Assembly (NCBI GenBank): GCA_964409365.1 | Contig: CAYPCX010000006.1 | Coordinates: 21,012 to 85,011, forward strand | Length of the DNA stretch: 64,000 nucleotides | Direction: 5' to 3' | Source of the DNA: an uncultured Planctomycetia bacterium | Lineage (GTDB): Bacteria; Omnitrophota; Gorgyraeia; Tantalellales; Tantalellaceae | Shown here: piece after piece, positions 16,354 to 63,092 of the stretch | Position numbering within the stretch: position 1 is the stretch's first letter | Layout of the letters: every line of letters starts with the position of its first letter | Position numbers and translations under genes: made by a program | Notes under the pieces: generated by a model | Seen by the model: only the letters and a program-made list of their open reading frames with translations | Told to the model about the DNA's origin: nothing | Database searches by the model: none

Positions 16354-16420
16354 ATATATTCTGGGGACATGTTTGGGCACCTACATAACGTCTACGACAA
16401 ACGTGTCCCCAGAACCTCAG
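16354..16420. repeat. conserved intergenic hairpin element, family A (TCTGGGGACA...TGTCCCCAGA), single copy, lpxK/waaA junction
   Basis: atatattCTGGGGACATGTTTG-loop-CAAACGTGTCCCCAGaacctcag. Its stem differs from other copies by paired substitutions. The waaA stop codon (TAG, 16392-16394) lies in the loop. Confidence 0.85.
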
Positions 16421-17696
16421 TAATGTATGGTTCCATTTTTCTTATAGTTCTACTAATCGCTCCCGAATTCCGTTCGATGACCTTTCTCGCGTTAGCGCTT
16501 ATCCTTTTTCTTTTTTCCGGATCACGCAAAAGTTCCCGCGCCACCGATCTCAGCTGTTCCACGTTCTCCACTCCGACAGCGGCATCATTCTCCAGAAAGA
16601 TATCGGCCACTTCCCTGAAGTTATACATGTTGGGCCCGAAAAGCACCGTCTTGCCCCAACTTGCTCCTTCTATCGGGTTCTGTCCGCCTTTTCTGGCCAG
16701 ACTACCTCCGACGAATATCAGTGTCGCAACGCTATATATATCCTTCAGATGCCCTATCGTATCCACCAGCACCACATCCACTTCGGAAGTGGCGCCTTGT
16801 TCAACCCCGGGGGTTGAAAGTATCTCGGAAAAAAGGCGGTATTTCATGCCTGACCTCTCGAGAAAAGCTCTGACAACATCCGTCCTTTCGACGTGCCGGG
16901 GAGCAAGTACTAGCTTCAGGTCGGGATACTTTCCTTTGAGTTCACCGTAAACGTCTATTATCTCCTTTTCCTCGGGGGAATGCGTGCTCCCGGCCACAAC
17001 GACCCTGTCTTCACGGCCAAATCCAAGGTACTCGCCGCTGAATGCGCCGGACGAGGCCGAGCCGGCAGGATCGTCGAACTTCATATTGCCCGTGACAAAG
17101 ACCTTTTCCCCCGGGGCACCGAGCGTCTTGATCCTTTCGGCGTCCCTTTCCGTCTGCATGCAGAAACAGTCGACGCATTTCAGGATGCGTTCCGTTACGA
17201 ACTTTATCCTGCCGTAATTCGTGAAAGAAGAATCGGATATCCTGCCGTTGGCCAGGATGATCGGCACGTCCTTGCGGTTGAGCTGCCGCAGAAGGTTCGG
17301 CCAAAGCTCCGTTTCCATCATCACGTACACCGACGGGTGCACAAGAGCCACGACCCGGGACACGATCACGCTTATATCCAGAGGATAATAGAATATCGCG
17401 TCGACCACGCCCTCGCCCGCCTTACGGATCATCTTATTACCGGTCTTCGTCGTGGTGGAAACTATGACAGAAGTGCCCGGACACGTCTTCTTTATCCCCG
17501 AGGCGAGCCGCGCCGCGAGCTGCGCCTCTCCCACGCTGACCGCGTGTATCCAGACGGGCCTTTCCAGCTTCTTTACGCTATCCGGCAGAACGCCGAACTT
17601 CTGGGGGAAATCCCCGTGAAGCTTTCCCTTTACCAGAAGATAAGGAACGTACAAAGCCGCGAAAACCAGAAAAACAAGATCATACAGTAACTGCAT
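16392..17696 (-). CDS. waaA: 3-deoxy-D-manno-octulosonic acid (KDO) transferase
   Basis: WIHAVSVGEAQLA motif of KdtA/WaaA. The last 9 codons are encoded inside the family-A repeat. Confidence 0.85.
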   Translation of the reverse strand: MQLLYDLVFLVFAALYVPYLLVKGKLHGDFPQKFGVLPDSVKKLERPVWIHAVSVGEAQLAARLASGIKKTCPGTSVIVSTTTKTGNKMIRKAGEGVVDAIFYYPLDISVIVSRVVALVHPSVYVMMETELWPNLLRQLNRKDVPIILANGRISDSSFTNYGRIKFVTERILKCVDCFCMQTERDAERIKTLGAPGEKVFVTGNMKFDDPAGSASSGAFSGEYLGFGREDRVVVAGSTHSPEEKEIIDVYGELKGKYPDLKLVLAPRHVERTDVVRAFLERSGMKYRLFSEILSTPGVEQGATSEVDVVLVDTIGHLKDIYSVATLIFVGGSLARKGGQNPIEGASWGKTVLFGPNMYNFREVADIFLENDAAVGVENVEQLRSVARELLRDPEKRKRISANARKVIERNSGAISRTIRKMEPYITEVLGTRLS

Positions 17697-17707
17697 ATCG
17701 TTTCGAT

Positions 17708-18580
17708 CTATGCGCGGGGGTGCGCTTTCGAATAGATCTCCTTGATCCGCTGCGTCCCGAGGTGCGTATAGATCTGGGTGGTCGACAGGTTCTTGTGCCC
17801 CAAAAGTTCCTGCACGCTCCTCAGATCCGCTCCATTGTTAAGCATATGGGTCGCGAACGAATGCCTTATTGAATGAGGGGATATCTTCTGCTCTATACTG
17901 CACTGCCTTATATATTTATCTATTATACGCCTCACGCTCCTGTCGGTAAGCCGCTTGCCGTTCTTGTTAAGGAAGAGCGCCTGCTGCGCAGCGGACCGCT
18001 GACTTTTCCTCTCGTCGATATAACTGCGTATGGCCCTCTGGGCCTCTTTTCCCAGTAGAGTTATGCGTTCTTTCTTTCCTTTACCCCTGACCTTTACCGC
18101 GCCGGCGATAAGATCGACCTCATCGGTATCGATCCCCACGAGCTCGCTTACGCGTATACCGGTGGAATACAGGACCTCCAGTATGGCCCTGTCTCTCAGT
18201 CCCAGAAGGCTGTCCAGCGGGGGGGCGGTGATCAGCTTCAGTGTCTTGTCCGCGTCGAGGAACTCCGGTAATTTCTTATCAAGTTTAGGGGTGAATATCC
18301 CCTCGGTGGGGTTCCTCGTGATGTGTTTGTCCCTGAAAAGAAAACGGAAGAACGACCTGATCGCGCCCAGTTTCCTCACAACGGTCCTCTTGGAACAGTT
18401 CCTGTGCTTGAGCTCCGCGAGGAAACGCCTTATATCGAGATGGGTCACCTTCTTCGGTTCCTTATCTTTAAGGAACCCGGCAAGCTCCAGGAGGTCCGTC
18501 CTGTAACCGCGCAGCGTGTGCTCCGAATAGTTCTTCTCGACCTCAAGATATTTGATGAATTTCCCGACGAAACGTTCCAT
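17708..18580 (-). CDS. xerC: tyrosine site-specific recombinase XerC/XerD family
   Basis: C-terminal [38 protein letters not shown] catalytic region. Start taken at MERFVGKF (18580), 2 nt after the topA stop. Confidence 0.8.
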
Positions 18581-18582
18581 CG

Positions 18583-20679: not shown

Positions 20680-20695
20680 ATAGTTCCGCTCCTTT

Positions 20696-21835
20696 TTAGA
20701 GTATTGAGTTTTGAGTATCACGTATCGAGTATCGGGATCCGGCCTCGGCCTTCACAAAACCCTTGATCTCCATCCTGAGAAGCTCCTCTGCCAATTCGCT
20801 CAGATCGATATTCGTAAGTTCCGAAATAAGATCTATATGTGCCGGGCCTTTCTCCAGCGCATCAAGGACCTTAAGCCCGTTTTTCCCGATCTTTCGCCGG
20901 TGTTCCCTGCGGTTTTCTTCGGTTTCACCCTTACCCCTGAGACCCGAGACCTGGAACCTGCGACCCGGATCAAGGTCCTCCAGAATATCATCGGCGCTCA
21001 TCACAAGCTTCGCGCCGTTCTGTATAAGCTCGTTAGTGCCTCCTGATGTAAGGGAATCCGCCCTTCCCGGAACGGCGAAGACCTCTCTTCCCTGGTCGAG
21101 AGCGAGATCCACGGTTATCATGGCCCCGCTTTTCCTTGTCGCTTCCACTACGACCACGCCTTTCGCCATGCCGCTTATTATCCTGTTCCTTCTCGGAAAA
21201 TTACCTCTTTCAGGAAACGTATCCGAAGTGTATTCGGTCAGTACCGCCCCGCTCTCGCATATGGCGGAAAAAAGCTTCCCGGACCCGGGAGGATAGACGT
21301 GCCCGAACCCGCTTCCCATGACCGCGACCGTACGCCCTCCGGCCCTGAGCGCGCCCCTGTGCGCGGCCGAGTCTATGCCTCTTGCCATGCCGCTTATAAC
21401 GGTAACGCCTTTCACGGCAAGAGCGAAGGCAAGCTGTTCCGCCATCTGAAGGCCGTACAACGAACAGCGTCTTGACCCTACAATGGCCACCGCGTTCGCC
21501 TCATCCCCCTGGAGCTTCCCTTTACAAAAAAGGACCGCCGGAGGATCGTATATATCCATGAGGACCTCAGGATATCCCCGTGTGCCGTAACACAGCAGGG
21601 TGATACCTTCTTTTTCGATATATTCCAGTTCCTCCGCTAATTTACGGGAATCCCTTGCCGCTTTTACCGCGGCCGTATCGGAAAAACGTCCGCCCGTCAG
21701 CTCCGCCAGGCGACGCGCCGGCATCGTGAACACCTCCTCGGTGTCATCTACGTCCCTGAGGATCTTAACTATGCTTCTGGCGCCGAGCCCCTTCGTAAGA
21801 GCGAGCGCCATTATGTCACGATCAACCTTATCCAA
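20696..21835 (-). CDS. dprA: DNA processing protein A
   Basis: DprA/Smf Rossmann-like domain (GIDSAAHRGAL...). Confidence 0.85.
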   Translation of the reverse strand: MDKVDRDIMALALTKGLGARSIVKILRDVDDTEEVFTMPARRLAELTGGRFSDTAAVKAARDSRKLAEELEYIEKEGITLLCYGTRGYPEVLMDIYDPPAVLFCKGKLQGDEANAVAIVGSRRCSLYGLQMAEQLAFALAVKGVTVISGMARGIDSAAHRGALRAGGRTVAVMGSGFGHVYPPGSGKLFSAICESGAVLTEYTSDTFPERGNFPRRNRIISGMAKGVVVVEATRKSGAMITVDLALDQGREVFAVPGRADSLTSGGTNELIQNGAKLVMSADDILEDLDPGRRFQVSGLRGKGETEENRREHRRKIGKNGLKVLDALEKGPAHIDLISELTNIDLSELAEELLRMEIKGFVKAEAGSRYSIRDTQNSIL

Positions 21836-22859: not shown

Positions 22860-23358
22860 CCGCCATTAACCCCTTTATCAATTTCACCACCCCGTTAACA
22901 TCCAGGTCGGCCGTGTTGATGTGAATATCGGCCTTTTCGTAAAAAGGGCTCCGGTACTCCATCAGTTCCTCGATCCGCTTTTTCGGGTCCTCCACGTTCA
23001 AAAGCGGCCTGTGCCCGTGCTTTACCGTGCGCTCATAAATAGTATCAAGGTCGGCCCAGAGACAAATGATAACGCCGTTCTTCCTCAAGTTCTCGATGTT
23101 CTTTTCGTCCAACACCACCCCGCCTCCGGCGTCTATCACCTGGTCCGCCTTTTCGCCGATCTGGCCTACGACCTCTTTCTCCACTTTGCGGAAATAAGGC
23201 TCTCCCTGGTCCTTGAAAATATCCTTGATGGGCTTCTTCTCCCTGGCTTCTATCAGGTCATCGGTGCTCACGTATTTCATGCCAAGGTCCCTTGCCAGGG
23301 CTTTCGCGACCACCGTCTTCCCCGTTCCCATAAACCCCACAATCGTTATATTTTTCAT
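22828..23358 (-). CDS. aroK: shikimate kinase
   Basis: MKNITIVGFMGTGKT P-loop. True start is the ATG at 23358. The track's upstream extension translates the repeat element. Confidence 0.85.
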   Translation of the reverse strand: MKNITIVGFMGTGKTVVAKALARDLGMKYVSTDDLIEAREKKPIKDIFKDQGEPYFRKVEKEVVGQIGEKADQVIDAGGGVVLDEKNIENLRKNGVIICLWADLDTIYERTVKHGHRPLLNVEDPKKRIEELMEYRSPFYEKADIHINTADLDVNGVVKLIKGLMADEKEDERKES

Positions 23359-23361
23359 AAT

Positions 23362-23477
23362 AATATATTCTGGGGACACGTCTGGTCGTCTACATGGCAT
23401 TTACACAGACGTGTCCCCAGAACCTCCGTTTTGTCAATCTACATGGCATTTACACAGACGTGTCCCCAGAACCTCCG
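23362..23477. repeat. family-A hairpin element, two tandem modules (one left arm, two loop plus right-arm modules, 49-bp period)
   Basis: aatatattCTGGGGACACGTCTG-gtcgtctacatggcatttaca-CAGACGTGTCCCCAG-aacctccgtt, then ttgtcaat-ctacatggcatttaca-CAGACGTGTCCCCAG-aacctccg, which abuts the aroC TAA stop. Confidence 0.85.
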
Positions 23478-24623
23478 TTACCTTTCTTTCAGCGTCTCCA
23501 TGTACGCGTCGTAATTCCTCCGCATCTCGCCTATCGAGTCCCTGCCGAACTTGTCCAGGAACGCCGAGGCCAGCTCTATCGCCACGGAGGCTTCCGCGAC
23601 CACCGCGCAGGCGGGCACGGCCGCGACATCGGCACGCTCTACCGCAGCTTTCGCCTTTTTCCCGGTGTCGACATCAACCGACGCCAGGGGTTTTCCAAGA
23701 GTGGCTATGGGCTTCATGAAACCCCTGACCACCACGGGCGCCCCGTTCGTCAGTCCGCCTTCTATTCCACCGGCATTGTTCGAGCCTCTGGTAAAAGTCC
23801 CCGTCTTCTCGTCATACCCTATCGGGTCATGCGTTTCGGAACCCTTCATGGAAGAACACTCTATGCCGCTGCCGATAGACACGGCTTTGACGGCCGGTAT
23901 GGACATCACCGCGCGGGCAAGCGCCCCGTCCATCCTCTTGTCCCACTGTGCATAACTGCCCAGCCCCGGCGGTACCCCCTCAGCGACTATCTCAAACGCG
24001 CCCCCGAGAGTGTCACCGGCTTCCCCGGCCTTGTCTATCTCTTTCTTCATGGCCTCAGCCGCTTTCTTGTCGGCGCACCTCACGTCGGAGGTCTCGGCCG
24101 ACTTGCGGATCTGGGCGACTGAAAGGCTTCCCGGGGCGGCTTTGACGGAACCGATAGCGGTCACGTGGCCGGCCACCTCTATCCCCAGCTCCCTGAGGAG
24201 TATCTTGGCCACGGCTCCCGCTGCCACGCGCGCTGCCGTTTCACGGGCACTGGCCCTTTCGAGCACGTTCCTGGCATCGGAAAAACCGTGCTTGAGCATG
24301 CCCGCAAGGTCCGCATGCCCGGGCCTCGGACATTTTATATCGGCAAGGTCCTCGATCTTGTAGTCCTTATTTTCTATGAGCATGGCGACGGGGCTGCCGA
24401 TCGTTATCCCCTTGCGGGAGCCGGATATTATCTCCGCCTTGTCGCTCTCGATCCGCATGCGGCCTCCCCTGCCATAGCCGGTCATTCTCCTGGCAAGCTC
24501 CCCGTTGATGAAATTTTCATCAAGCTTGATGCCGGCTGGTACGCCGTCAAGAATGGCCACGAGACCCTTCCCGTGTGATTCTCCTGCAGTCATGTACCTG
24601 AGCATGGTCAACTCCTTTTCCAT
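23478..24623 (-). CDS. aroC: chorismate synthase
   Basis: 381 aa AroC family. Confidence 0.9.
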   Translation of the reverse strand: MEKELTMLRYMTAGESHGKGLVAILDGVPAGIKLDENFINGELARRMTGYGRGGRMRIESDKAEIISGSRKGITIGSPVAMLIENKDYKIEDLADIKCPRPGHADLAGMLKHGFSDARNVLERASARETAARVAAGAVAKILLRELGIEVAGHVTAIGSVKAAPGSLSVAQIRKSAETSDVRCADKKAAEAMKKEIDKAGEAGDTLGGAFEIVAEGVPPGLGSYAQWDKRMDGALARAVMSIPAVKAVSIGSGIECSSMKGSETHDPIGYDEKTGTFTRGSNNAGGIEGGLTNGAPVVVRGFMKPIATLGKPLASVDVDTGKKAKAAVERADVAAVPACAVVAEASVAIELASAFLDKFGRDSIGEMRRNYDAYMETLKER

Positions 24624-24625
24624 TT

Positions 24626-24656
24626 ATACATCGGGTGTATAATACACCCGATGTAT
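24626..24656. repeat. family-B palindromic hairpin (ATACATCGGGTGTAT/ATACACCCGATGTAT) filling the pilD-aroC junction
   Basis: Perfect 15-bp arms around a single nucleotide. The same arms are seen at 60980-61005, with a covarying centre. Confidence 0.8.
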
Positions 24657-24658
24657 AG

Positions 24659-27991: not shown

Positions 27992-28188
27992 GTCATTTCC
28001 TTTTCTCAGAAGACAGAAGTCAGATGTCAGAAATCAGATATTAGGTGTTTGGTGTTAGATATTAGTTATTAGTTTTTAGTTCTTAGTCGTACAACTCATA
28101 ACTCATAACTAACAACTCAACACTTGATACTTGTTACTTTATCCTTTATCCTTGTTACTTGTCTCTGTCCTCTGTCATCTGTCCTCTA
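27992..28188. repeat. about 28-unit degenerate heptamer tandem array filling the ilvC-leuA spacer; the two halves are roughly complementary
   Basis: cagaaga cagaagt cagatgt cagaaat cagatat taggtgt ttggtgt ... gttactt gtctctg tcctctg tcatctg. The units drift gradually; the 5' half is purine-rich and the 3' half pyrimidine-rich. Confidence 0.85.
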
Positions 28189-29705: not shown

Positions 29706-31400
29706 TTACGCCAACCCGTGTATCATATTGTTGATGGTGCCGCCGGCCGGGACCATCGGAAAGACGTTCTCGTCTCTTTCCACGACAAAATCCATGACCA
29801 CGGGGCCTTTTTCCTTTATGGCGGCCTTGATAGCCTTTTTCACGTCAGCTTTCTTCGTGATCCTCATGCCTTTAGCTCCGTAACTTTCGGCAAGCTTCAT
29901 GAAATCAGGGCACGTCGTGCATCTTTCCTCGCCAAGGATCGTGAAAGCGTAACGTTTATCGAAGAACAGTTCCTGCCACTGCCGGACCATACCGAGACAC
30001 CCGTTATTCAGTATCGCTATCTTGACGGGTATCTTATTGATAACGGCCGTGGCCAGTTCCTGGATGTTCATCTGGATGCTCCCGTCCCCCGCTATATCGA
30101 ATACCACGCTGTCGGGCCTTCCGACCTGCGCGCCGATAGCGGCGGGAAAACCGTATCCCATCGTGCCCAGGCCGCCGCTCGAAAGCCAGGTCCTGGGCTT
30201 CGTGTAAGTGAAATACTGAGCCGCCCACATCTGGTTCTGGCCGACCTCGGTGCTGATGATAACGTTCTTATCCCTGGTCAGCCTGCATATCTCCTCTATA
30301 ACGTATTGCGGGCGGAGCTTGCCGTCGTCTTTATACTTGAGCGGCAGATCTTTTTTCCACTTCTTTATTTTCCCGTGCCAATCCTTGTAGCTGCCTTGTT
30401 TGACGTGTTTCAGCAGCTCTTTGAGGATATCCTTAGCGTCGCCGATCACGGGGATATCGACCTGCACGTTCTTGCTGACGCTGGCCGGGTCTATATCAAT
30501 ATGCACGATCATCGCGTGAGGCGCGAAGGTGTCTATCCTCCCGGTGACGCGGTCGTCGAACCTGGCTCCGATGGCGATTATCAGATCCGCGTCCTGTACC
30601 GCGTGGTTCGCGTAGGCCGTACCATGCATCCCCAGCATGCCCAGGCTCAGGGGATCGTCCTCCGGAAAACTGCCCAAACCCATCAACGTAGTGGTGACAG
30701 GTATATTGGCCTTTTTCGCCAGCTTAGTAAGCTCTCCGCTCGCCTCGGAAAGTATGACCCCTCCGCCCACGTAAAGTATGGGCTTTTTGCTTTTCGCGAT
30801 AGCTCTGGCTATCTTCTTTATCTGGCCTATATGCCCTTTATACGTGGGTTTGTATCCCTTTATGTCCACCGACTTGGGATATCTGAACTCGGCCTCATGC
30901 AGCTGGACATCCGACGGCAGGTCTATGAGCACGGGGCCGGGCCTGCCGGTCCTCGCGATGTGGAACGCCTCCTTGACCACCTTAGCCAGCTCTTTAACGT
31001 CTTTCACAAGATAGTTGTGCTTTGTTATAGGACGGGTGATACCCACTATGTCCGCCTCCTGAAACGCATCGTTACCTATCAAGGTGGACTTGACCTGGCC
31101 GGTGATCGCGACAATGGGTATGGAATCCATGTGCGCCGTCGCTATACCCGTAACAAGATTGGTAGCCCCGGGCCCCGATGTAGCCAGACACACCCCTACC
31201 TTACCGGTAGCACGGGCGTACCCATCGGCCGCGTGGACCGCTCCCTGCTCGTGACGCGTCAGGATAAAATTGATATTCTTCTCCTTGAAGAGCTTATCCC
31301 CCAGCGTAAGAACGGAGCCTCCCGGGTAACCAAAAATAACTGAAACCCCTTCCTCGCAAAGGCTTTTAACCATTATCTCAGCACCAGTAAGTTTAGCCAT
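29706..31400 (-). CDS. ilvB: acetolactate synthase large subunit (ThDP-dependent)
   Basis: ThDP enzyme family. Start placed at MAKLTGAEI (31400), which has an AGAGAGGGA SD. Confidence 0.85.
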
Positions 31401-31475
31401 GATCCCTCTCTTTGCCATCATATAATAGTCATTTCCTATATATTATAATCAACATGTCCGTATATGTTCAATAAG

Positions 31476-31503
31476 TATATAACACTTGTAAAGGTTTTGT
31501 CAA
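31476..31503 (-). promoter_or_regulatory. sigma70-type promoter candidate for ilvBNC-leuA: TTGACA-N16-TATATA
   Basis: Minus-strand TTGACAaaacctttacaagtgtTATATA, about 75 nt upstream of the ilvB ATG, just downstream of the four-helix-bundle gene stop. Confidence 0.4.
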
Positions 31504-31924: not shown

Positions 31925-32117
31925 AAACTCCTCGCCTGACTTGCGACTTGTGACTTGCGACCTGCGACTTGCGACCTGCGACTTGTGATACACACACATA
32001 TATAGACACCTTTTTTCATTTTTTCTTGAAAATAACTTAAAACTTGGGGCTTGCAACTTGGCGCCTGAGACTTGCGACCTGCGACTTGAGACCTGAGACC
32101 TGCGACCTGCGACTTGA
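31925..32117. repeat. heptamer tandem array (gacttgc/gacctgc units) with an AT-rich centre, between alr and the four-helix-bundle gene
   Basis: gacttgc gacttgt gacttgc gacctgc ... cttgcga cctgcga cttgaga cctgaga. The track ORF 31846..32121 is a translation of these repeats. Confidence 0.8.
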
Positions 32118-33239: not shown

Positions 33240-33292
33240 GTATATCTCTGTATTAGTTTCCGGTAACCAGATATCTGGTTACTGGTTACTGG

Positions 33293-33967
33293 TTACTTAT
33301 TAATATTACATTCCTTGGAATGCAAATACAAGGGTTCCAGGAACTCGGGGTCATCTGTCCCCGAACCTGATCTTTCCAGGCCCAGACGGCCTATGTCGGC
33401 CGCTCTGGGATGCCAGTCGATATCTTCGGAAAATCCTGCCAGATCACAATTTCCCAGCTTTTCCCTGTATTTCGGGACCCCGTTACCGAAAAACAGTACC
33501 CGCTCTTCCAGCCCGGCCAGGAGCTCTTCGATCGTCACGAGAAGATAGTCCGTCTTTCTGCTCGCAAATCCATCCGAACGTTCATAAATACAAGAATAGA
33601 CCTTCCCTTTATGCGCGTCCAAAAGCGGAGCTACCAGTTTCTTTTCCTCCCCATGAACGTTCATGACCATGGCATCCATACTGGGAACACCCAGTACCTT
33701 GACCGGAAGGACCGAGGCCAATCCCTTTACCGTAGCGGCCGCGATACGCAGCCCCGTAAAGGAACCCGGCCCCAGCCCCACGCAAACCAGTTCGATGACC
33801 TCTTTTCGCCACCCGGCTTCTTCCAGCAGGTTCTTTATGACCGGCACCAGTATCTCGCTGTGACGGATCCCCACATCCTCGTGGAACGACGCCCTTATTT
33901 CCCCTCCGTCGAGGCACGCCACGCTCAAATATCTGGTGGAAGTGTCAAACGCAAGTGCTCTCTTCAT
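33293..33967 (-). CDS. tsaB: tRNA threonylcarbamoyladenosine biosynthesis protein TsaB (YeaZ)
   Basis: Kae1/YeaZ fold N-terminus (LAFDTST...). 224 aa. Confidence 0.8.
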   Translation of the reverse strand: MKRALAFDTSTRYLSVACLDGGEIRASFHEDVGIRHSEILVPVIKNLLEEAGWRKEVIELVCVGLGPGSFTGLRIAAATVKGLASVLPVKVLGVPSMDAMVMNVHGEEKKLVAPLLDAHKGKVYSCIYERSDGFASRKTDYLLVTIEELLAGLEERVLFFGNGVPKYREKLGNCDLAGFSEDIDWHPRAADIGRLGLERSGSGTDDPEFLEPLYLHSKECNINK

Positions 33968-34434
33968 AATAACTTATCGATAAGATCCGCGAACCTTCCG
34001 TTATTCGAACGGAACTCGAACTTTCTTTCGGTACTATAGCCGTGAAAGATATCTATCTCGAGATAGTCCTCGGGCAGGACGTCCCGTATCTTTTCGGCCC
34101 ATTCGACCACGGTGATGCCATCACCGTAGAAATACTTTTCATAATCAAGGGTGTCGCAGAAACTTTTCTCTTCCAGGCGATAAACGTCAAAATGATACAG
34201 TTTCTTCACGCCCGGATATTCCTTGAGAACGACAAAAGACGGGCTGTTCACGTGGAGGTAATCTTCGACCCCCAGACCTTTCGCCAGTCCTTTAACGAAA
34301 ACCGTCTTTCCCGTACCCAGGTCTCCGACCAGGGCCACAAGATCCCCTTCGCGAAGTTCTTTTGCCACGTTAGCCCCTAATTCGATCGTCTCTTCCGGCG
34401 AAAATGTCCTCATCTCCTTCATCACGCCTGACAC
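33964..34434 (-). CDS. tsaE: tRNA t6A biosynthesis ATPase TsaE (YjeE)
   Basis: GDLGTGKT P-loop. 156 aa. Confidence 0.8.
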   Translation of the reverse strand: MSGVMKEMRTFSPEETIELGANVAKELREGDLVALVGDLGTGKTVFVKGLAKGLGVEDYLHVNSPSFVVLKEYPGVKKLYHFDVYRLEEKSFCDTLDYEKYFYGDGITVVEWAEKIRDVLPEDYLEIDIFHGYSTERKFEFRSNNGRFADLIDKLL

Positions 34435-34455
34435 CTGAGACCTGAAACCTGAAAC

Positions 34456-35352
34456 CTAAACATGCCTGTATCCCTCCATCTTCAACTTGCTGAGGCGCGC
34501 TTCCTTTTCTATCAGTACGCGCTCGTTCTTCCTGCCTGTTATTTCGCCTATGACAAAATACTCAAGGGCTTTCGCGCGGGGCTTCATGTCCCGGAAAAGC
34601 CTTCTCGCCTCTTTAACTCCCATGGTAAAAAGAAGCTCGAAACTCTCCCCGTAATAAAGCGCCTCCCTGAGAGAAAGCCCCTTTGAAAGAGGGATGGCGT
34701 CAGCGTATAAAACGCATCCCGCGCGGCTGAGAGAGCATATCCTGCCGATATCGGGCGCTATGCCGTCGGAAGTGTCTATCATGGCGTTTATCCGGTAATT
34801 TTCCGAGAGAAAACGCGCCTCGACAAGACGCGGGATAAAATCGAGATGTTCTTTTTTGCCGTTCCTTACGGGCCCCGTCACGAGGATAAGGTCGCCTTTC
34901 TCCGCGCCGGAGCGCGTTAAAAGACGTTCCTTTTCCACGATCCCCAGGATGGAAACGTCTATCACCAGTTTCCCCGAACGGACGGTATCCCCGCCTATGA
35001 CCTTGACGCCGTACTCCCTGCATATGCCGAAGATCCCGTCGTATATCTTATCGACTGCCGTCCGCGCCATGCCGCGCGGCACCCCGATACTGACGGTAAC
35101 GTACTTCGGGAGACCTCCCATCGCCGCTATGTCGCTTATGTTCACCGCGACGGCTTTCCTGCCTATTTTCGCATACTCCGTATCCCCGGTCCGGAAATGA
35201 GTGCCGGAGACGAGCATGTCGGCCGCCCATAAAAGATACTCTCTCTTCGTGTGCTCAAGGACAGCGCAATCGTCGCCTATGCCCAGTTTTACGCCTTTGC
35301 CGGGCCTTCCCGCGCGCTTGCGTATCTTTTCAATTAATTCCAACTCTCTCAT
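34456..35352 (-). CDS. thiL: thiamine-monophosphate kinase
   Basis: AIR-synthase-related fold. Start taken at MRELELIEK (35352). The track's extension reads into the repeat. Confidence 0.8.
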   Translation of the reverse strand: MRELELIEKIRKRAGRPGKGVKLGIGDDCAVLEHTKREYLLWAADMLVSGTHFRTGDTEYAKIGRKAVAVNISDIAAMGGLPKYVTVSIGVPRGMARTAVDKIYDGIFGICREYGVKVIGGDTVRSGKLVIDVSILGIVEKERLLTRSGAEKGDLILVTGPVRNGKKEHLDFIPRLVEARFLSENYRINAMIDTSDGIAPDIGRICSLSRAGCVLYADAIPLSKGLSLREALYYGESFELLFTMGVKEARRLFRDMKPRAKALEYFVIGEITGRKNERVLIEKEARLSKLKMEGYRHV

Positions 35353-35356
35353 AATA

Positions 35357-35520
35357 GTATATTCTGGGGACACGTCTGGTCGTCTACATGTCGTTCACAC
35401 AGACGTGTCCCCAGAACCTCAGTTTTGTCAATCTACATGTCGTTCACACAGACGTGTCCCCAGAACCTCAGTTTTGTCAATCTACATGTCGTTCACACAG
35501 ACGTGTCCCCAGAACCTCAG
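35357..35520. repeat. family-A hairpin element, three tandem modules (49-bp period)
   Basis: One left arm (CTGGGGACACGTCTG) followed by three copies of ctacatgtcgttcaca-CAGACGTGTCCCCAG-aacctcag(tt), separated by ttgtcaat. The mtnA stop codon TGA lies in the last aaccTCAg flank. Confidence 0.9.
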
Positions 35521-36551
35521 TCCCCTATCATTCGTACTACTTTGCTCCTATTGGGCTTCCTTATAACCCCTTTTTCCGTGATGATCGCGGTGATAAGCCT
35601 GGCCGGCGTGACGTCAAAAGCGGGGTTCACGACATCGACCTTTTTCGGCGTAATGAACTTCCCGTTCACTTTTTTCACCTCAAGCGCGGGCCGTTCTTCA
35701 ATAGGGATGGACTTCCCGTTTTTCAGCGAAAGATCAAAAGTGGAAGCGGGCGCGGCCACATAGAACGGCACACGGTGAAACGCGGCAATCACTGACAAAC
35801 TGTACGTCCCTATCTTGTTAGCCGTATCTCCGTTAGCCGCTATACGGTCCGCCCCGACCACTATAGCGTCTATTTTCCCTTCCGCCATCAGCGAAGCGGC
35901 CATGTTGTCGCATAAAAGGACCGTGGGGACGCCTTCCCGCATGAGCTCCCAGGCCGTAAGGCGGGCACCCTGCAGGACGGGACGCGTCTCGTCCGCGTAC
36001 ACCTTTTTTATCTTTTTCCTGGCCGAAAATATCACTCCAAGCGCCGTGCCATACCCGCCGGTCGCCAGGCCGCCGGCGTTGCAGTGGGTAAGGACCCGCG
36101 CCGCCCTCGGCAGGAGCTTTTTCCCGTTCTTACCTATCGCGCGGCAGATCTTCACGTCTTCCCTTAGAACAGCGTGAGCCTCGTCAAGTATCAGGCGCTT
36201 CAGTTCCCTGACGGGCCTGGCCCTGTTCGTGTCGACCACGAAAGCCATCCGCTCCAGCGCCCAGAAAAGGTTCCTGGCGGTAGGACGCGAACTGGAAAGG
36301 TACTTGATCGTCGCGGCAAGCTCTTTCCTGAACGGCCGGATATCCTTTGCCCGGCTTTTCCTTATTCCCAGGTACACGCCGTACGCCCCGGCTATACCTA
36401 TCGCCGGAGCGCCTCTTATCTTCATGTGCCTGATAGCCGCCCACATATCCCCGCGGGTCCGGCAAGTCACGTATTTAAGTTTACCCGGCAGGAGCCTCTG
36501 GTCGATAAGTTCCACCCTGCCGTTCTTCCACCTTATAGGTTCCACGTTCAT
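35517..36551 (-). CDS. mtnA: methylthioribose-1-phosphate isomerase / eIF-2B-related family
   Basis: MNVEPIRWKNGRVELIDQRLLPGKLKYV N-terminus typical of MtnA. Confidence 0.75.
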   Translation of the reverse strand: MNVEPIRWKNGRVELIDQRLLPGKLKYVTCRTRGDMWAAIRHMKIRGAPAIGIAGAYGVYLGIRKSRAKDIRPFRKELAATIKYLSSSRPTARNLFWALERMAFVVDTNRARPVRELKRLILDEAHAVLREDVKICRAIGKNGKKLLPRAARVLTHCNAGGLATGGYGTALGVIFSARKKIKKVYADETRPVLQGARLTAWELMREGVPTVLLCDNMAASLMAEGKIDAIVVGADRIAANGDTANKIGTYSLSVIAAFHRVPFYVAAPASTFDLSLKNGKSIPIEERPALEVKKVNGKFITPKKVDVVNPAFDVTPARLITAIITEKGVIRKPNRSKVVRMIGD

Positions 36552-37638: not shown

Positions 37639-37737
37639 ATCTTCATAACCTCGTCGTCATCCTTGCACCCTGACACCGTCTTCTGTCTTCTGTCTTCTGT
37701 CCTCTGTCTTCTGTCTTCTGTCCTCTGAAACAAGCCG
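37639..37737. repeat. heptamer array (tctgtct/tctgtcc, about 8 near-perfect units)
   Basis: tctgtct tctgtct tctgtcc tctgtct tctgtct tctgtcc tctgaaa. Confidence 0.85.
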
Positions 37738-39114: not shown

Positions 39115-39130
39115 GTTAACGCCTCATAGG

Positions 39131-39172
39131 TTTCAGGTTTCAGGTCTCAGGTTTCAGGTTTCAGGTTTCAGA
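39131..39172. repeat. heptamer microsatellite (caggttt/caggtct, 6 copies) between ogt and the tatD-rSAM gene
   Basis: ggtttcaggtttcaggtctcaggtttcaggtttcaggtttcag. Confidence 0.85.
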
Positions 39173-41861: not shown

Positions 41862-42012
41862 GTTAACTCCCCATCTATCTGTATCAGAAGTCAGATGTCA
41901 GAAGACAGAAATCAGATATTAGGTGTTTGCTGTTGGAGGACACTATAATCTTTTTTCTGTCCTCTGTTCTCTGTCTTCTGTTTTCTGTCCTCTGTTCTCT
42001 GAGACTTTTCGT
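41862..42012. repeat. heptamer array sharing a 5' module with the 27992-28188 array
   Basis: cagaagtcagatgtcagaagacagaaatcagatattaggtgtttgctgtt ... tctgtcctctgttctctgtcttctgttttctgtcctctgttctctgagac. Confidence 0.8.
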
Positions 42013-45060: not shown

Positions 45061-45112
45061 ATCCACTATCCAGAATCGAACTTCAAGTTTGTAACCAGTA
45101 ACCAGTGAAAAA

Positions 45113-45190
45113 AGCATAGCTCAAAGGGCATAGCGCACAGCGTAAAACTGTAACACTTTGCTCTTTGCGCTTAACTCTTTGCAATCAAAG
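45113..45190. repeat. 78-bp repeat, left copy of an inverted pair bracketing cysE-ispF-ispD
   Basis: Its reverse complement matches 47134-47212 at about 72/78 positions. Built from gcatagc and ctttgcN heptamers. Confidence 0.85.
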
Positions 45191-45208
45191 ACCCAACACT
45201 CACCGGCG

Positions 45209-47092: not shown

Positions 47093-47133
47093 CTCTATAT
47101 TCTTGATACTCGATACTTGCTACAATGTTGAAT

Positions 47134-47212
47134 CTTTGATTGCAAAGAGCTAAGCGCATAGAGCAAAGAATTACAGTTTTACGCTGTACGCTATGCCCTT
47201 TGCGCTATGCGT
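47134..47212. repeat. 78-bp repeat, right copy (inverted relative to 45113-45190)
   Basis: ctttgattgcaaagagctaagcgcatagagcaaagaattacagttttacgctgtacgctatgccctttgcgctatgcg. Confidence 0.85.
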
Positions 47213-47259
47213 TTTCACTGGTACTTGTTACTTTTTCCTTGTTCCTTGTTACTTGTTAC

Positions 47260-48288
47260 TCACTGATGCCTTTTTTGCTCGGGCCTCTCGGGCCTTTCAA
47301 CAAGATTGGCGAATATCATCCTGCCGGCGGAGGTCTGCAGCACGCTCGTGACGGAAACGTTCACGGTCCTTCCTATACACTTTCTCGCGTTATCGACCAC
47401 TATCATGGTCCCGTCGTCCATGAAGGCCACGCCCTGGTTCCGCTCTTTTCCCTCTTTCTTGATGTAAGCCGTCATCTGTTCTCCCGGGAACACTACCGGG
47501 CGCAGCGCGTTGGCCAGGTCGTTGATGTTCAGGACCGTTACCCCTTCAAGTTTGGCCACCTTGTTGAGGTTGAAATCGTTCGTCAGGACCCGGCAATCGA
47601 GTATCCTTGCCAGGCGTATGAGCTTCGCGTCGACCTCCTTGACGTCCGGGAGGTTCTCCTCATGTATTATCACTTCCGTCTGGGGCATGCCTTTCAGGCG
47701 GTTCAGCATGTCCAGCCCCCTGCGTCCCCTGTTACGCTTGGTGTCATCGGAACTGTCCGCTATCTGGTGCAGCTCCTGCAGGACGAACCTCGGGATGACG
47801 AGCCTGCCCTCGAGGAAACCCGTCTCGCAGATACCGGCGATCCTGCCGTCGATTATCACGCTGGTATCCAGAAGAAGCAGCTGGTCCTTCTGGTCCTCGC
47901 GAGAAAACCGCACGTACGGTATCACCAGGTTGAACTCGTCCTTGCCTTTTAGCGCGATGACCATGCCCAGATAGCAGAAGACAAGCGTGAACGCTATCTG
48001 CAGCACGGAATAGATCACCTCATCCATGGGTATCAGGCGGACTATCAGGGTGACCATCCACGCCATGAAAAAACCGAAAACCAGGCCGAAAGCCGCCGCC
48101 GACAAGTTACGCAGCGACACGTGCTTCAACTTGACCTCCAAAAGTATCAGGAGCAACGCGCAGACGAACCCGGCACCGGCGCCGATCATGGCGCCCTCCC
48201 TTGAAAGATCTGTCAAGAGAGACCCGACGTAATACCCGCATACTACGCTCAGGATCAGAAAAAATGCCCTTATGAACCTTTCAGTCAT
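47260..48288 (-). CDS. yacL: PIN/TRAM domain membrane protein (YacL-like)
   Basis: N-terminal TM helices, central PIN (LLLDTSVIIDGR) and C-terminal TRAM domain. Confidence 0.75.
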   Translation of the reverse strand: MTERFIRAFFLILSVVCGYYVGSLLTDLSREGAMIGAGAGFVCALLLILLEVKLKHVSLRNLSAAAFGLVFGFFMAWMVTLIVRLIPMDEVIYSVLQIAFTLVFCYLGMVIALKGKDEFNLVIPYVRFSREDQKDQLLLLDTSVIIDGRIAGICETGFLEGRLVIPRFVLQELHQIADSSDDTKRNRGRRGLDMLNRLKGMPQTEVIIHEENLPDVKEVDAKLIRLARILDCRVLTNDFNLNKVAKLEGVTVLNINDLANALRPVVFPGEQMTAYIKKEGKERNQGVAFMDDGTMIVVDNARKCIGRTVNVSVTSVLQTSAGRMIFANLVERPERPEQKRHQ

Positions 48289-50750: not shown

Positions 50751-50761
50751 ATTAACCCCTT

Positions 50762-54739: not shown

Positions 54740-54758
54740 CTTCTATTCCCTCCCCTAT

Positions 54759-56325: not shown

Positions 56326-56420
56326 ATTGTCCTCGTAAAACGCTTGTTTCAGAAAACAGGAATCAGACGTCAGATTTCATACAATTCTGTCCTCTGTCTT
56401 CTGCCATCTGTCCTCTGTCT

Positions 56421-58011: not shown

Positions 58012-58036
58012 TACTCACTACTTTATACTCGATACT

Positions 58037-59248: not shown

Positions 59249-59343
59249 GTTTTTTCAGGTTTAACACTTCTTTTCAGAAGACAGAGGTCAGATGCCAGAA
59301 TTCTGTTTTCTGCTTTCTGTCTTCTGTTTTTCAAAACCACATA

Positions 59344-60774: not shown

Positions 60775-60852
60775 GCTGCTCCTCCCCGGAGACAAAAATA
60801 CCCGCCATATATTAGGGTAATTATAACCACTATAATTAAAAATTACCACACA

Positions 60853-60881
60853 ATTATAGCTTTATTAAAAATGGATGTCAA
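60853..60881 (-). promoter_or_regulatory. consensus sigma70 promoter for lysS: TTGACA-N17-TATAAT
   Basis: Minus-strand cgTTGACAtccatttttaataaagcTATAATtgtg, about 80 nt upstream of the lysS ATG in an AT-rich 240-bp spacer. Confidence 0.6.
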
Positions 60882-60979
60882 CGTAATTTGCGTTAGGAAG
60901 GACAAACACCCAGCCTATATATAGGTTTATACAGGTTTAGAGAGGTATAACAATGTTTATACATGTTCACCCATGTTAT

Positions 60980-61005
60980 ACATCGGGTGTGTACACACCC
61001 GATGT
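60980..61005. repeat. family-B palindromic hairpin (ACATCGGGTGTGT/ACACACCCGATGT) immediately after the ligA stop
   Basis: Same arms as 24626-24656, with centre gtgt/acac instead of gtat/atac (compensatory). Confidence 0.8.
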
Positions 61006-61014
61006 GTGTAAGGG

Positions 61015-63012
61015 TTATTTGAGGAGGGATTTGAACTCGGCTTCGGTGATGATCCTGATGCCTTTTTTCTTTGCCTGGTCGAGTTTTGATCCGGCTTTCT
61101 CCCCCGCCACGACAAGGTCGGTCGTCGCGCTTACGCTTGACTGGGCTTCGCCGCCTTCGGCTTCGACTATTTTTTTTGCTTCGGAGCGGCTTATGGTCTG
61201 GAGAGAACCGGTGAAGACGATCCTTTTCCCGAGGAGTTTTCCTTTTGTGGCCTTTTTCTTTTCGCGGACCTTTACGCCGTTTTTCTCTAACTTCCGGATC
61301 TCATCAACGTTCTTTTTCTGTTTGAAAAAATCGGTAATGCTCTCCGCTATCTCCGGCCCGATCTCGTTTATCGACATAAGGCTTTCCTGGTCGGCTGACA
61401 TTATTTTCCGCAGCGTACCGAATTTACCGGCAAGGAGGGTCGCTATGTGTTTGCCTACATTCCTTATCCCGAGACCGAAAAGAAAACGGTCGAGGGGAAT
61501 GTCTCTGGACCTTTCTATAGAATTCAAAAGGTTCTGCGTCTTCTTTTCTTTCCATCCCTCAAGCTTCAGGAGATCTTCCCCTTTAAGCTTATAAATATCG
61601 GAAATACTGCTTATCAAACCTTCTTCATAAAGAAGTTCGACCGACTTGTCGGAAAAACCGTCTATATCCACCGCTCCCTTGCTGGCGTAATGGCTGATCG
61701 CCTCTTTAAGCTGTGCCGGGCAGGCAAGTCCCGCGGGACAGCGGTAGAACACGTCTTCCTTCTCCAGGGTAGCGCCGCAGCTCGGACACTTCTTCGGCAT
61801 GTGGAACGCTTTTTCCCTACCGGTACGCCTATGGCTGATGACCTCGACCACCTCGGGGATAACGTCGCCCGCCCTCTGGACCTTGACATGATCCCCGACT
61901 TTCACGCCGAGGCGTTCTATCTGGTCCATGTTATGGAGCGAAGCGCGCGATACCGTGACCCCGCCTACCTCTACCGGCTGGAGGAGCGCGACGGGCGTGA
62001 TGGCACCGGTCCTTCCTACCTGTACGACGATATCCTCCACGCGCGTTACCTCTTTGCGCGGTTCGAACTTATAGGCGACGGCCCATTTAGGGTTATTGGT
62101 CCTCATGCCTATTCTTTCCTGGAGGGAAAGATCATTTACCTTGATCACGACGCCATCTATCTCATAATCCAGGTCATCGCGTTTTTTCTCGAGGTTACTG
62201 TGATAGGATACGGCCTCTTTTATATTCCTGCAGTGTTTAGCACCCGGCGATACCTGTATGCCAAGGCCTTCGATAAGGCCAAGCGCCTCTTTTTGCGTGG
62301 CCGGCAGCTTCTCGGAATAATCGAGTATCCTGTAACAGTAGACATGGAGTTTTCTCTGGCCCGTTATCCGCCAGTCGAGCTGGCGCATGGAACCGGCGGC
62401 GGCGTTGCGCGGATTCGCGAAAGTATCCTTACCGAGTTCCGTCTGTCTTTTGTTCAGCGCATTGAAATCCTTGATGTGCATCATCACCTCGCCGCGAAGG
62501 GCGATGCGCCCGGGCGGTTTCGCGCACTTGAGCTTCTTCGGGAGAGTGACGATCGTCTTGAGGTTCAGTGTTACGTCTTCGCCCACCAGACCGTCACCCC
62601 GGGTGGAGCCTCTCACGAATTTTCCGTCCTCGTAGACCAGTTCTATGCTCAGGCCGTCAAGTTTCGGCTCGCACACGTAGTCGATGCTTTCGCCGGTCTC
62701 TTTTCGGCATGTCTCGTCAAAATGCTCGGCGCCCTTTTCATCGTTCACGCTTTCCAGGCTGAGCATCGGCGCCATATGCTTCACCTTTACGAACTTATCA
62801 GGGATAGGCGCCCCCACCGTCTGCGTCGGGGAATCGGGTGAGATATATTCCGGGTGCTTGGCTTCAAGACCCTTAAGCTCCTGCATAAGCCGGTCATATT
62901 TGGCGTCCGATATCACCGGCTTGCCTTCCGTGTAGTAGAGCCTGTTGTGCCGCCTGATGTTCTTCCTGAGTTTGTTTATCTTTCTTTTCACATCTTCCAT
63001 ATTTACCTTCAC
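61015..63012 (-). CDS. ligA: NAD-dependent DNA ligase
   Basis: KxDG adenylation motif (EPKLDGLSI), OB, Zn finger, HhH and C-terminal BRCT. Track start is a GTG at 63012. An alternative ATG lies at 63000. Confidence 0.9.
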   Translation of the reverse strand: MKVNMEDVKRKINKLRKNIRRHNRLYYTEGKPVISDAKYDRLMQELKGLEAKHPEYISPDSPTQTVGAPIPDKFVKVKHMAPMLSLESVNDEKGAEHFDETCRKETGESIDYVCEPKLDGLSIELVYEDGKFVRGSTRGDGLVGEDVTLNLKTIVTLPKKLKCAKPPGRIALRGEVMMHIKDFNALNKRQTELGKDTFANPRNAAAGSMRQLDWRITGQRKLHVYCYRILDYSEKLPATQKEALGLIEGLGIQVSPGAKHCRNIKEAVSYHSNLEKKRDDLDYEIDGVVIKVNDLSLQERIGMRTNNPKWAVAYKFEPRKEVTRVEDIVVQVGRTGAITPVALLQPVEVGGVTVSRASLHNMDQIERLGVKVGDHVKVQRAGDVIPEVVEVISHRRTGREKAFHMPKKCPSCGATLEKEDVFYRCPAGLACPAQLKEAISHYASKGAVDIDGFSDKSVELLYEEGLISSISDIYKLKGEDLLKLEGWKEKKTQNLLNSIERSRDIPLDRFLFGLGIRNVGKHIATLLAGKFGTLRKIMSADQESLMSINEIGPEIAESITDFFKQKKNVDEIRKLEKNGVKVREKKKATKGKLLGKRIVFTGSLQTISRSEAKKIVEAEGGEAQSSVSATTDLVVAGEKAGSKLDQAKKKGIRIITEAEFKSLLK

Positions 63013-63024
63013 ACAAAAATAAAA

Positions 63025-63092
63025 ATATATTCTGGGGACACATCTGGTTGTCTACATGTCGTTTACACAGATGTGTCCCCAGAACCTCAGTT
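63025..63092. repeat. family-A hairpin element, single copy, PolX/ligA junction
   Basis: atatatTCTGGGGACACATCTG-gttgtctacatgtcgtttaca-CAGATGTGTCCCCAGAacctcagtt. The stem carries the paired change CG to TA relative to loci 2 and 3. Confidence 0.85.

Follow-up and report, generated by a model that had tools for sequence, protein, structure and literature searches.

The Correia elements (Correia repeat enclosed elements, CREE) of Neisseria are transcribed together with their neighbours and can act as terminators, promoters or RNase III sites. Correia-type hairpin-forming MITEs (miniature inverted-repeat transposable elements) and their activities have been discussed in the literature (PMC4853749). 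Repetitive extragenic palindromes (REPs) are found between unidirectional or convergent open reading frames (ORFs), no more than 20 bp from where the upstream ORF ends, and in many cases they provide its stop codon (PMC3733652). [quoted passage not shown] The present work concerns a hairpin repeat, here called Family A, at four gene junctions of a 64,000-nt stretch of DNA (the window; positions 21,012 to 85,011 of contig CAYPCX010000006.1, assembly GCA_964409365.1) from an uncultured bacterium placed in the Omnitrophota. The Omnitrophota are uncultured, and the expression of their long single-strand gene arrays is almost a blank.

The reading favoured here, with a probability of about 0.55, is that Family A is a lineage-restricted, dispersed palindrome resembling the REPs and the bacterial interspersed mosaic elements (BIMEs), more than a structured RNA specific to certain genes, and that it has been gained, lost and part-duplicated at the gene junctions of some Omnitrophota genomes. 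The element is previously uncatalogued and, on present evidence, it is not a new class of regulatory RNA.

Anatomy of the element

Four full copies are present in the window, all on the minus strand. Copy 1 (16346-16426; 90.8 bits against the covariance model) separates waaA from the downstream lpxK. Its hairpin spans 16359-16414 with arms at 16359-16375 and 16398-16414, and the inner stem ATGTTTG/CAAACGT includes a single T.G pair, which is a wobble on the plus strand only. Copy 2 (23355-23434; 87.5 bits) lies between aroC and aroK, with its hairpin at 23368-23422, arms at 23368-23384 and 23406-23422, the inner stem ACGTCTG/CAGACGT, and a GGAGG located 5' of the stem in the mRNA sense. The same inner stem recurs in copy 3 (35349-35428; 87.1 bits) between mtnA and thiL, where the hairpin occupies 35362-35416 and the arms 35362-35378 and 35400-35416. 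Copy 4 (63017-63096; 86.3 bits) lies between PolX and ligA. Its hairpin is at 63030-63084, its arms are at 63030-63046 and 63068-63084, and its inner stem ACATCTG/CAGATGT is changed on both sides relative to copies 2 and 3. Pfam supports the identity of the flanking genes (LpxK, WaaA, AroK, AroC, ThiL, MtnA, LigA and, for PolX, its PHP domain); no protein identical to AroK was found when it was looked up.

The initial annotation, made from the letters alone, had placed hairpins at these four junctions, between co-directional genes, with inner stems that differ and stay complementary. Sequence reading, 15-mer counts and arm pairing confirm this hairpin family as real, down to the inner stem of each copy and the T.G pair of the first, and the copies sit at junctions and not at random inside genes. 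The right-arm 15-mer TGTCCCCAGAACCTC occurs exactly seven times in the window against 0.13 expected from shuffles, and the left-arm 15-mer TATATTCTGGGGACA four times against 0.10. Every full copy has 17-nt arms that are 94-100% complementary. Folding energies of the hairpin, for both strands, are -27 to -40 kcal/mol (z-scores -2.5 to -7.8 against shuffles).

On the plus strand the element reads ATATATT, then CTGGGGACA with a variable inner stem of 6-7 nt, the loop, the arm TGTCCCCAG and AACCTC(A/C)GT. In the gene sense the upstream stop is followed by (A)CnGAGGTT, the hairpin, an AATATAWT-T-rich tail and the downstream start. More fully, the gene-sense element consists of a CnGAGGTT flank (preceded in some copies by TTGACR-N9), a stem of 17-19 bp with the invariant base TTCTGGGGACA/TGTCCCCAGAA and a variable upper part, a loop of 17-28 nt and the tail AATATAWTTTTATTTTTGA. 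The hairpins measure 55-62 nt and the element about 80 nt, or about 160 nt in a composite form found in the related metagenome-assembled genome (MAG) JBDRNI01.

Loci 2 and 3 are longer because the loop, the right arm and the flank are tandemly repeated. The repeated unit of 49 nt comprises the 3' part of the loop, the right arm, the flank and the linker TTTGTCAA; locus 2 has one such repeat and locus 3 has two, making three extra half-units in all, and this repetition accounts for the surplus of right arms in the window. At locus 2 the half-unit at 23438-23478 (minus strand) repeats 23389-23429 in tandem, with the linker between the two, and consists of the 3' part of the loop, the right arm and a CCTCCGT flank. 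At locus 3 tandem-repeat analysis finds two extra half-units within 35432-35521 (35432-35472 and 35481-35521, minus strand), which belong to an array at 35383-35521 with a period of 49 nt, 2.8 copies and 100% identity. The extra partial arms lie in every case on the GAGG (upstream) side. The initial annotation had described the hairpins, without pointing out the tandem half-units or the T-rich 3' tail.

Gain, loss and exchange at orthologous junctions

The LigA protein of the window shares 60-75% identity with NCBI proteins named Candidatus Omnitrophota. Homologous copies of the element occur in the Omnitrophota MAG JBDRNI01 (contigs L001, L008, L023, L068, L090 and L102), and two metagenome contigs (L222 and L228) carry the Omnitrophota-type element as well; the inner stems of all these copies differ in sequence and are still complementary. 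Of 117 matches in the 15-mer search of genome contigs, about 110 are chance singles in unrelated taxa, and the six JBDRNI01 contigs are genuine. Copies number 4 in the 64-kb window, and the roughly 40 kb of JBDRNI01 loci hold 9 or more; every one of them is in a spacer or overlaps an ORF end. Similar DNA was found in none of 72,556 plasmids, and 2.9 million viral contigs gave a single match to the element.

Presence and absence differ at the same junction. The JBDRNI01 contig L008 is syntenic with 59-64 kb of the window (AspS 77%, LigA 68% and PolX 62% identity), and it also carries the element between PolX and ligA. The same junction is empty in four Omnitrophota relatives, at least three of which are closer to the window by LigA identity than JBDRNI01 (68%). 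A gap of only 7-8 nt separates the genes in L234 (LigA 75%) and L236 (72%); in L238 and L239 (72% each) PolX overlaps ligA by 1-4 nt. Elsewhere the junction holds other sequence, namely an unrelated small hairpin in L235 and an inverted tandem array in L240 (67%). A covariance-model search, as the initial annotation had proposed, was run with a model built from 11 copies; it recovered the four known copies of the window and found zero in about 130 kb from these six relatives (L234, L235, L236, L238, L239 and L240).

Exchange is seen in a second syntenic stretch, where the JBDRNI01 contig L023 corresponds to 16.4-20.6 kb of the window. Upstream of topA the element is present in L023 and 7-nt tandem repeats stand in the window; at the 3' end of waaA, (ACTCTTT)n is found in L023 and copy 1 in the window.

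The element also leaves scars in the genes that it follows, donating a stop codon or a C-terminal tail. The waaA frame enters copy 1 through the right arm and ends at a TAG in the loop (16392-16394), so that the last nine residues of WaaA (TEVLGTRLS) and the stop are element-encoded; the JBDRNI01 protein ends at about the point where homology ends. Similarly, mtnA has its stop TGA (35517-35519) from the last half-unit, within the conserved flank ACTGAGGTT, the aroC stop TAA (23478-23480) abuts the half-unit of locus 2, and in L228 the upstream gene likewise ends within the element. One-sided partial duplications are found in the window, in JBDRNI01 and in other subfamilies. Hence, the absences and exchanges at orthologous junctions, together with the insertion scars, point to a sequence that inserts, duplicates and gets lost rather than to a conserved regulator, and the element is not tied to particular genes.

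Complementary change in the stem

The 11 regular Omnitrophota-type copies can be aligned over their whole length, the loop included. Across the 17-pair helix 98.9% of the cells are paired, and 4 of the 17 pairs are changed on both sides (10 cells). None of 500 shuffles reached the covariation score of this alignment, pairing falls to 17-57% when the partner arm is slid by 1-3 columns, and RNAalifold independently predicts the same 17-pair helix. The covariation is therefore genuine, and the excess of complementarity-preserving changes that the initial annotation suspected from four copies is present in the larger set. The sole recurrent pair outside the Watson-Crick rules, at columns 25/64, is U.G on the plus strand in 7 of the 11 copies.

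The initial annotation had read such paired changes as selection on a folded nucleic acid. This interpretation is partly supported. Complementarity is kept through change, which is no proof of RNA selection at these genes; that step does not follow, because the element is absent or exchanged at orthologous junctions and overruns the end of waaA. Covariation is expected for any element that propagates via a hairpin or whose arms are corrected against each other.

Orientation and the downstream start codon

The minus strand carries all of the ~58 genes of the window, and each 2-kb bin has a negative GC skew; so long a co-directional gene run (1-64000) is unusual. The Omnitrophota-type copies, 14 in number (four from the window, eight from JBDRNI01, and L222 and L228), are all co-oriented with their flanking genes, so that GAGGTT faces the upstream gene and the AATATA-T-rich side (AATATAWTTTT) faces the downstream start. 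The GAGGTT is invariant in all 14. Stop codons of the window lie 0-13 nt from the conserved flank or inside the element. The tail consensus is kept between genomes that are about 30% apart in protein sequence; in the mRNA sense the tails read AAUAUAUUAUUAUG and AAUAUACUAUUAUG at loci 2 and 3 and AAUAUAUUUUUAUUUUU at locus 4. The ATG of aroK (23358-23356, minus strand) and that of thiL both stand 11 nt past the CCCCAG of the stem, equal to 9 nt past ...AGAA (the initial annotation had given 9 nt from stem to ATG), with no Shine-Dalgarno sequence in between. The ligA gene retains its own: in the mRNA sense copy 4 is followed by AAUAUAUUUUUAUUUUUG, the Shine-Dalgarno GAAGGU and then the ATG (63000).

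These starts bring up the explanation that the element is a cis-acting RNA for translation of the downstream gene, either a split ribosome-binding site, with GAGG brought to the start codon by the hairpin, or an RNase III site that uncouples the cistrons. Split ribosome-binding sites have a precedent in genes 38 and 25 of phage T4. The invariant GAGGTT in one orientation and the covariation of the stem would suit such a site; many other window genes have the Shine-Dalgarno sequence that aroK and thiL lack, the GAGG-to-AUG spacing becomes 9 nt with the UU:AA pairs closed, and the downstream gene of L228 also starts at an ATG inside the tail. However, lpxK and the ligA of JBDRNI01 start 18 nt past CCCCAG (16 nt from GAGG with UU:AA closed), ligA, L023 and L068 have their own Shine-Dalgarno sequences 30-45 nt downstream, and the GAGG of the extra half-units has no nearby start codon. 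The element is moreover absent from the PolX/ligA junction of close relatives, heptamer arrays can substitute for it, and 7 of the 11 aligned copies have a C.A mismatch in the mRNA strand, which argues against tuning of an mRNA-sense hairpin. A translational role of this kind is judged unlikely overall, although it may apply to single copies, as may the cassette considered next.

Quite unlikely, in turn, is a portable, Correia-like terminator-promoter cassette, in which the hairpin would stop transcripts and the TATAAT, TATATT or TATACT 3' of it would serve as a -10 box. A hexamer TA(T/A)AWT does follow the stem directly in 13 of the 14 copies, and Correia-type MITEs with TATA ends have been discussed as promoters (PMC4853749). 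Upstream, the linkers of loci 2 and 3 in the window and most JBDRNI01 copies have a TTGACR that precedes TTCT by exactly 9 nt; window copies have TAGACA or TAGACG 19 nt upstream of the -10-like hexamer. Yet a -35 element at 16-18 nt exists in no copy and the promoter scan made no call, the position in JBDRNI01 that corresponds is GC-rich loop sequence, and transcripts starting 7 nt past the hexamer would hit or enter the ATG of aroK and thiL. The whole palindrome, besides, lies between TTGACR and TATAAT, which come to be 17 bp apart only if a cruciform is extruded, and binding of RNA polymerase there is unlikely. A cruciform-dependent promoter of this design (TTGACR-N9-TTCT, palindrome, AGAA-TATAAT, with a 17-bp spacer) was dismissed as numerology, since in a four-way junction no continuous helix arises from the stacking of opposite arms.

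A hairpin core shared with other phyla

Family A belongs to a wider set of hairpin repeats that have the same core in other phyla. A metagenome scan with the pattern TTCTGGGGACA-N25-55-TGTCCCCAGAA matched at least 114 contigs. Among the matches listed, 114 distinct inner sequences remain after duplicate removal, with 53 different first heptamers, and recurrent subfamilies can be told apart, such as GACACCGAATTC in soils, CCATACTTAATTC and its relatives in sediments and CGATCCCGATTC in peat. Over the first 12 inner positions of the 114 hairpins listed, 75% are Watson-Crick paired; giving each arm a partner from another copy lowers this to 41% (at most 48% in 500 trials). The host contigs of the matches listed range from 37 to 70% G+C; one carries an Acido-Lenti-1 motif, typical of Acidobacteria and Lentisphaerae, and one low-GC contig is gammaproteobacteria-like. 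Some singletons must be chance because the metagenome collection is large. For example, the high-GC L158 (Collinsella ihumii, 98% protein identity) is probably a chance palindrome that contains the 11-mer, and a non-hairpin group (L132, L139, L145, L151 and L216) is probably unrelated, with the 11-mer by chance. Several contigs hold at least two copies, degenerate copies, or one-sided arrays of truncated arms.

About 20% of the hairpins listed share GGGGACAT...GTGTCCCC, that is, a T.G wobble directly above the invariant foot. These span several subfamilies, the Omnitrophota type included, and some have a one-base bulge. The strand with the T.G is antisense to the neighbouring genes in 11 of 14 judgeable cases, and outside the Omnitrophota the ratio is 6:3. 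By rough ORF calls the gene context of the wider set is tandem in 37 cases, convergent in 17 and divergent in 7; the same rough calling wrongly tags many copies as 'inside' ORFs, since perfect palindromes are without stop codons. Among 1653 ORFs from 120 loci no neighbouring protein family recurs.

In one metagenome lineage 4-5 truncated arm copies of 15-30 nt stand beside a hairpin (L144, 1-240; L152, 250-660; L221, 1430-1580), a pattern that looks like repeated abortive copying or nested insertion. These arrays abut a putative IS66-like transposase C-terminal fragment (motif judged by eye). The fragment was rejected as a partner, as it looks like an insertion target and does not recur elsewhere.

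A further explanation of the element would be a MITE derived by deletion from a DDE insertion sequence, whose arms would be the terminal inverted repeats bound by a transposase and whose co-variation would reflect co-evolution with that protein. The outer 11 nt of the arms are identical in many lineages and the inner parts diverge, as in the terminal inverted repeats of related insertion sequences, and presence/absence polymorphism and nested and truncated copies would be in keeping with it. The flanks tell otherwise. There are no direct target-site duplications, and where the sequences beyond the 11-mer match, as they do in many copies, they are inverted complements (e.g. ggag...ctcc, ggta...tacc). 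The window flanks TATA and CCTC are likewise not direct repeats, and a target-site duplication model with AATT was rejected since the deviating flanks are inverted. The Omnitrophota type has conserved asymmetric flanks on both sides, and the conserved T.G wobble and the 1-nt bulge of some subfamilies fit single-strand recognition better. No transposase gene with such arms on both sides was found in about 600 kb of loci; an IS4-like ORF in L202 was tried as a parent insertion sequence and rejected, because the left arm at 6003 is a chance near-match and the ORF is not bracketed. A MITE origin is thus very unlikely. Least credible of all is a double-stranded DNA binding site consisting of two TTCTGGGGACA half-sites in inverted orientation, such as an operator or a target of some protein of the nucleoid, of partition or of replication. 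The 11-bp half-site is invariant while the rest varies, and it recurs in distant taxa; but the half-sites are 33-39 nt apart in the Omnitrophota and 25-55 nt elsewhere with no fixed helical phase, the intervening sequence varies and is yet self-complementary, which a duplex-binding protein does not require, and the genes concerned are functionally unrelated.

Proposed propagation and effect on the transcript

For a REP/BIME-like Family A, the mode of propagation, the mobilising enzyme and the effect on the transcript may be inferred as follows. The element would spread as DNA through a single-stranded hairpin intermediate, the conserved stem base of which would be recognised by an enzyme acting in trans; the arms would co-vary and insertion would be strand-specific because of this single-strand propagation. 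The leading candidate would be a HUH-Y1 transposase of the REP-associated tyrosine transposase (RAYT) type. Within a polycistronic message the element would be transcribed as a very stable stem-loop with a U-rich tract after the upstream stop. It might then have the part that REPs play, blocking 3' exonucleases and serving between cistrons as an attenuator or partial terminator, and leaving an AU-rich, unstructured leader for the next start codon. Among the window spacers of at least 35 nt, 14 of 28 fold with z < -2, those with Family A, a second palindrome and inverted heptamer arrays included, which implies that a hairpin is the usual state of a junction here and that its sequence is interchangeable between relatives. 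This fits a generic role in the transcript, as 3' barrier, attenuator or insulator, for whichever repeat occupies the site.

A gene for such an enzyme, with different hairpins of its own, is found in the related Omnitrophota genome L240. The predicted Y1_Tnp protein of 192 aa (PF01797, E = 6.6e-18) has the HVH and Y..NP motifs, and its gene (1070-1648) is flanked on both sides by TCTAACCAGGTTA-NNN-TAACCTGGTTAGA hairpins of 14-15 bp. The parts of this REPtron (415-437, 1059-1089, 1070-1648 and 1677-1709) include a third hairpin copy at a neighbouring junction. It lies near the conserved SpoVG-PolX-LigA region, and its hairpin differs from Family A. As a separate observation, the core TAACCAG/CTGGTTA of the L240 hairpins recalls the heptamers GTAACCA and CTGGTTA at 2280-2347 and 33252-33300 of the window.

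Known families were searched without a match. The initial annotation had recognised no described family, and curated Rfam models at the gathering score indeed gave 0 matches in the window. At E up to 10 the element gives just generic hairpin matches to microRNA precursors, and in 20 related loci Rfam found tRNAs and one unrelated Acido-Lenti-1 site, and nothing else. No description of the element was found in the literature on Omnitrophota repeats or on MITEs of uncultured bacteria, and a literature search by sequence returned eukaryotic primer matches alone.

Several points weigh against a REP/BIME-like element with the effects proposed above. A Y1-like ORF was not found in the window plus about 10 kb of the source genome, nor in six JBDRNI01 pieces of 3-8 kb, and no cognate transposase lies beside any Omnitrophota-type copy. 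The sole RAYT-like fragment near a hairpin of the wider set, 750 nt from that of L162, is not above background: one in about 600 kb is the rate in unrelated control loci (L079), and the candidate was rejected. The REP tag, GT[AG]G or CGTC as an unpaired foot, is not present in Family A, which is flanked by TATATT and AACCTCAG; GTAG, GTGG and CGTC occur at neither foot, and CGTC is confined to the stem of copies 2 and 3 in the window and does not occur in JBDRNI01. On the transcript of the flanking genes the U.G of columns 25/64 turns into a mismatch (C.A) in 7 of the 11 aligned copies. Orientation to the genes is inseparable from orientation to replication, as the window genes occupy a single strand with constant GC skew. 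As for termination, the stem base is G+C-rich, but the loop, at 17-28 nt, is long, two A residues stand between the G:C part of the stem and the U tract, which is itself interrupted, and a consensus terminator scan made no call at these sites. Finally, three of the four junctions part functionally linked genes that are tightly coupled in relatives, where a strong terminator would be costly.

A bolder extension may be sketched, though it is rather improbable. The hairpins with a paired CTGGGGACA(Y)...(G)TGTCCCCAG foot, many of them with a conserved T.G wobble just above it, would form a third, undescribed 'tag' superfamily among the REP-like repeats, mobilised by an uncharacterised single-stranded DNA enzyme common to Omnitrophota, Acidobacteria-like and gammaproteobacterial lineages. 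In the Omnitrophota the repeat would have taken on the role of an intercistronic module with a set orientation (hairpin, U-rich tail, and Shine-Dalgarno beyond the stem) that replaces the native ribosome-binding region of some genes, among them aroK and thiL.

Other repeats in the window and its relatives

Many intergenic spacers of the window are filled by 7-nt tandem arrays, the unit of which differs at almost every site (574-626, 2280-2347, 7460-7517, 13307-13394, 28006-28187, 31938-32117, 33252-33300, 34427-34461, 37678-37727, 39128-39171, 41884-42001, 47212-47260, 56386-56419 and 59275-59330). Read in gene direction, they frequently stop a few nucleotides short of a start without a Shine-Dalgarno sequence, a location like that of the TAACTGA repeats in Beggiatoaceae and Cyanobacteria (PMC4679880). 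Several consist of an array and its inverted array and form long imperfect hairpins (41885-41922 with 41943-41980; 2280-2309 with 2318-2347), and heptamer arrays and Family A swap at the orthologous topA and waaA junctions of the window and JBDRNI01.

A second family of junction palindromes, ACATCGGGTGT/ACACCCGATGT, is represented at 24625-24657, directly upstream of the aroC start (16-bp stem, 1-nt loop), and at 60980-61005, just downstream of ligA (13-bp arms, no loop). Its half-sites number four exact matches and one chance-level near-match against 0.7 matches expected. Further, an inverted repeat pair of 90 nt (45109-45198 and 47126-47215; 90% complementary, 1927 nt apart) brackets three housekeeping genes, namely ispD, ispF and one that resembles serine acetyltransferase. 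The pair could give rise to a long-range RNA stem, or be the mark of a segment that is invertible or was once mobile. Of the sigma-70-like promoters matched in the 20 kb scanned, the best, TTGACA-18-TATACT and TTGAAC-18-TATAAT, lie at 31442-31503 on the minus strand, upstream of the gene at 29706-31421.

Outside the Omnitrophota-type loci, L214 has Acido-Lenti-1 sites at 237-282 and 10518-10563 (...CAGCCGCGGAGCGGCGTTAGAG... on the opposite strand). By eye they resemble the class 3 Y1 repeats of Solibacter usitatus (CAGAGCCGCGACCGTTAGGGAGCG; PMC6006769, Table S1), and to judge from this likeness in sequence Acido-Lenti-1 may be that class 3 REP-like repeat.

Significance of interchangeable junction repeats

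Gene junctions in this lineage are filled by interchangeable hairpin-forming repeats, namely Family A, the second palindrome and the inverted heptamer arrays, and these turn over between related genomes. The invariant 11-nt stem base of Family A is common to repeats in unrelated phyla. If this core is what a shared mobilising enzyme recognises, it would offer a handle for finding that enzyme and a marker for tracing the spread of such repeats across phyla in metagenomes. For annotation, the element accounts for contig breaks, for extended C-termini such as that of waaA, and for starts without a ribosome-binding site, as in aroK and thiL.

Comparison with described repeats

The TAACTGA repeats share with Family A the intergenic position and an end a few nucleotides before the start, often without a ribosome-binding site. 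They differ in being tandem 7-nt units and not a unique palindrome, and the unit sequence of the window arrays varies by junction. The Correia elements of Neisseria are likewise hairpin-forming intergenic repeats, of about 100 nt, with TATA-type ends. In contrast to Family A, which has no duplication and one TATA-like end, they have 26-bp terminal inverted repeats and a TA target duplication, and the sequences of the two are unrelated.

The class 3 TnpA-Y1 hairpins (Quentin et al., 2018; PMC6006769) occur at high copy number in Planctomycetes, Acidobacteria and Proteobacteria, similar to the probable hosts of the wider set. They have a 5' CnGA, and CTGA or CGGA is found 5' of GGTT and the stem in most of the 14 Omnitrophota-type copies; unlike the class 3 foot, the CnGA of Family A is 4 nt from the G:C stem. 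The class 3 sequences CnGAGCCGCGACCGTAAGGGAGCGG form weak, short structures, unlike the TTCTGGGGACA hairpins. Membership in class 3 was rejected, as Family A lacks the GCCGCGACC...GGGAGCGG structure and its sequence and shape differ completely (PMC6006769, Table S1).

The closest likeness is to REPs, BIMEs and REPINs. Family A differs from them in its longer loop (17-28 nt), its conserved asymmetric flanks, its strict co-orientation with genes and the one-sided repetition of partial arms, and no cognate RAYT was found in the loci read. Like them, it is a short (20-65 nt), multi-copy, imperfect palindrome outside genes, mostly between co-directional or convergent genes, which lies a few nucleotides past the upstream stop and sometimes supplies that stop or enters the ORF (PMC3733652). 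The conserved stem foot, the variable upper stem and the species-specific variants are common to both, as are mosaic clusters with other motifs (compare the composite form of JBDRNI01), the lack of a target-site duplication, and presence or absence at orthologous sites. The conserved block CTGGGGACA of Family A is paired, and among described forms it comes nearest to the 'double-foot' REP of RAYT subclass 2.4 (PMC6006769).

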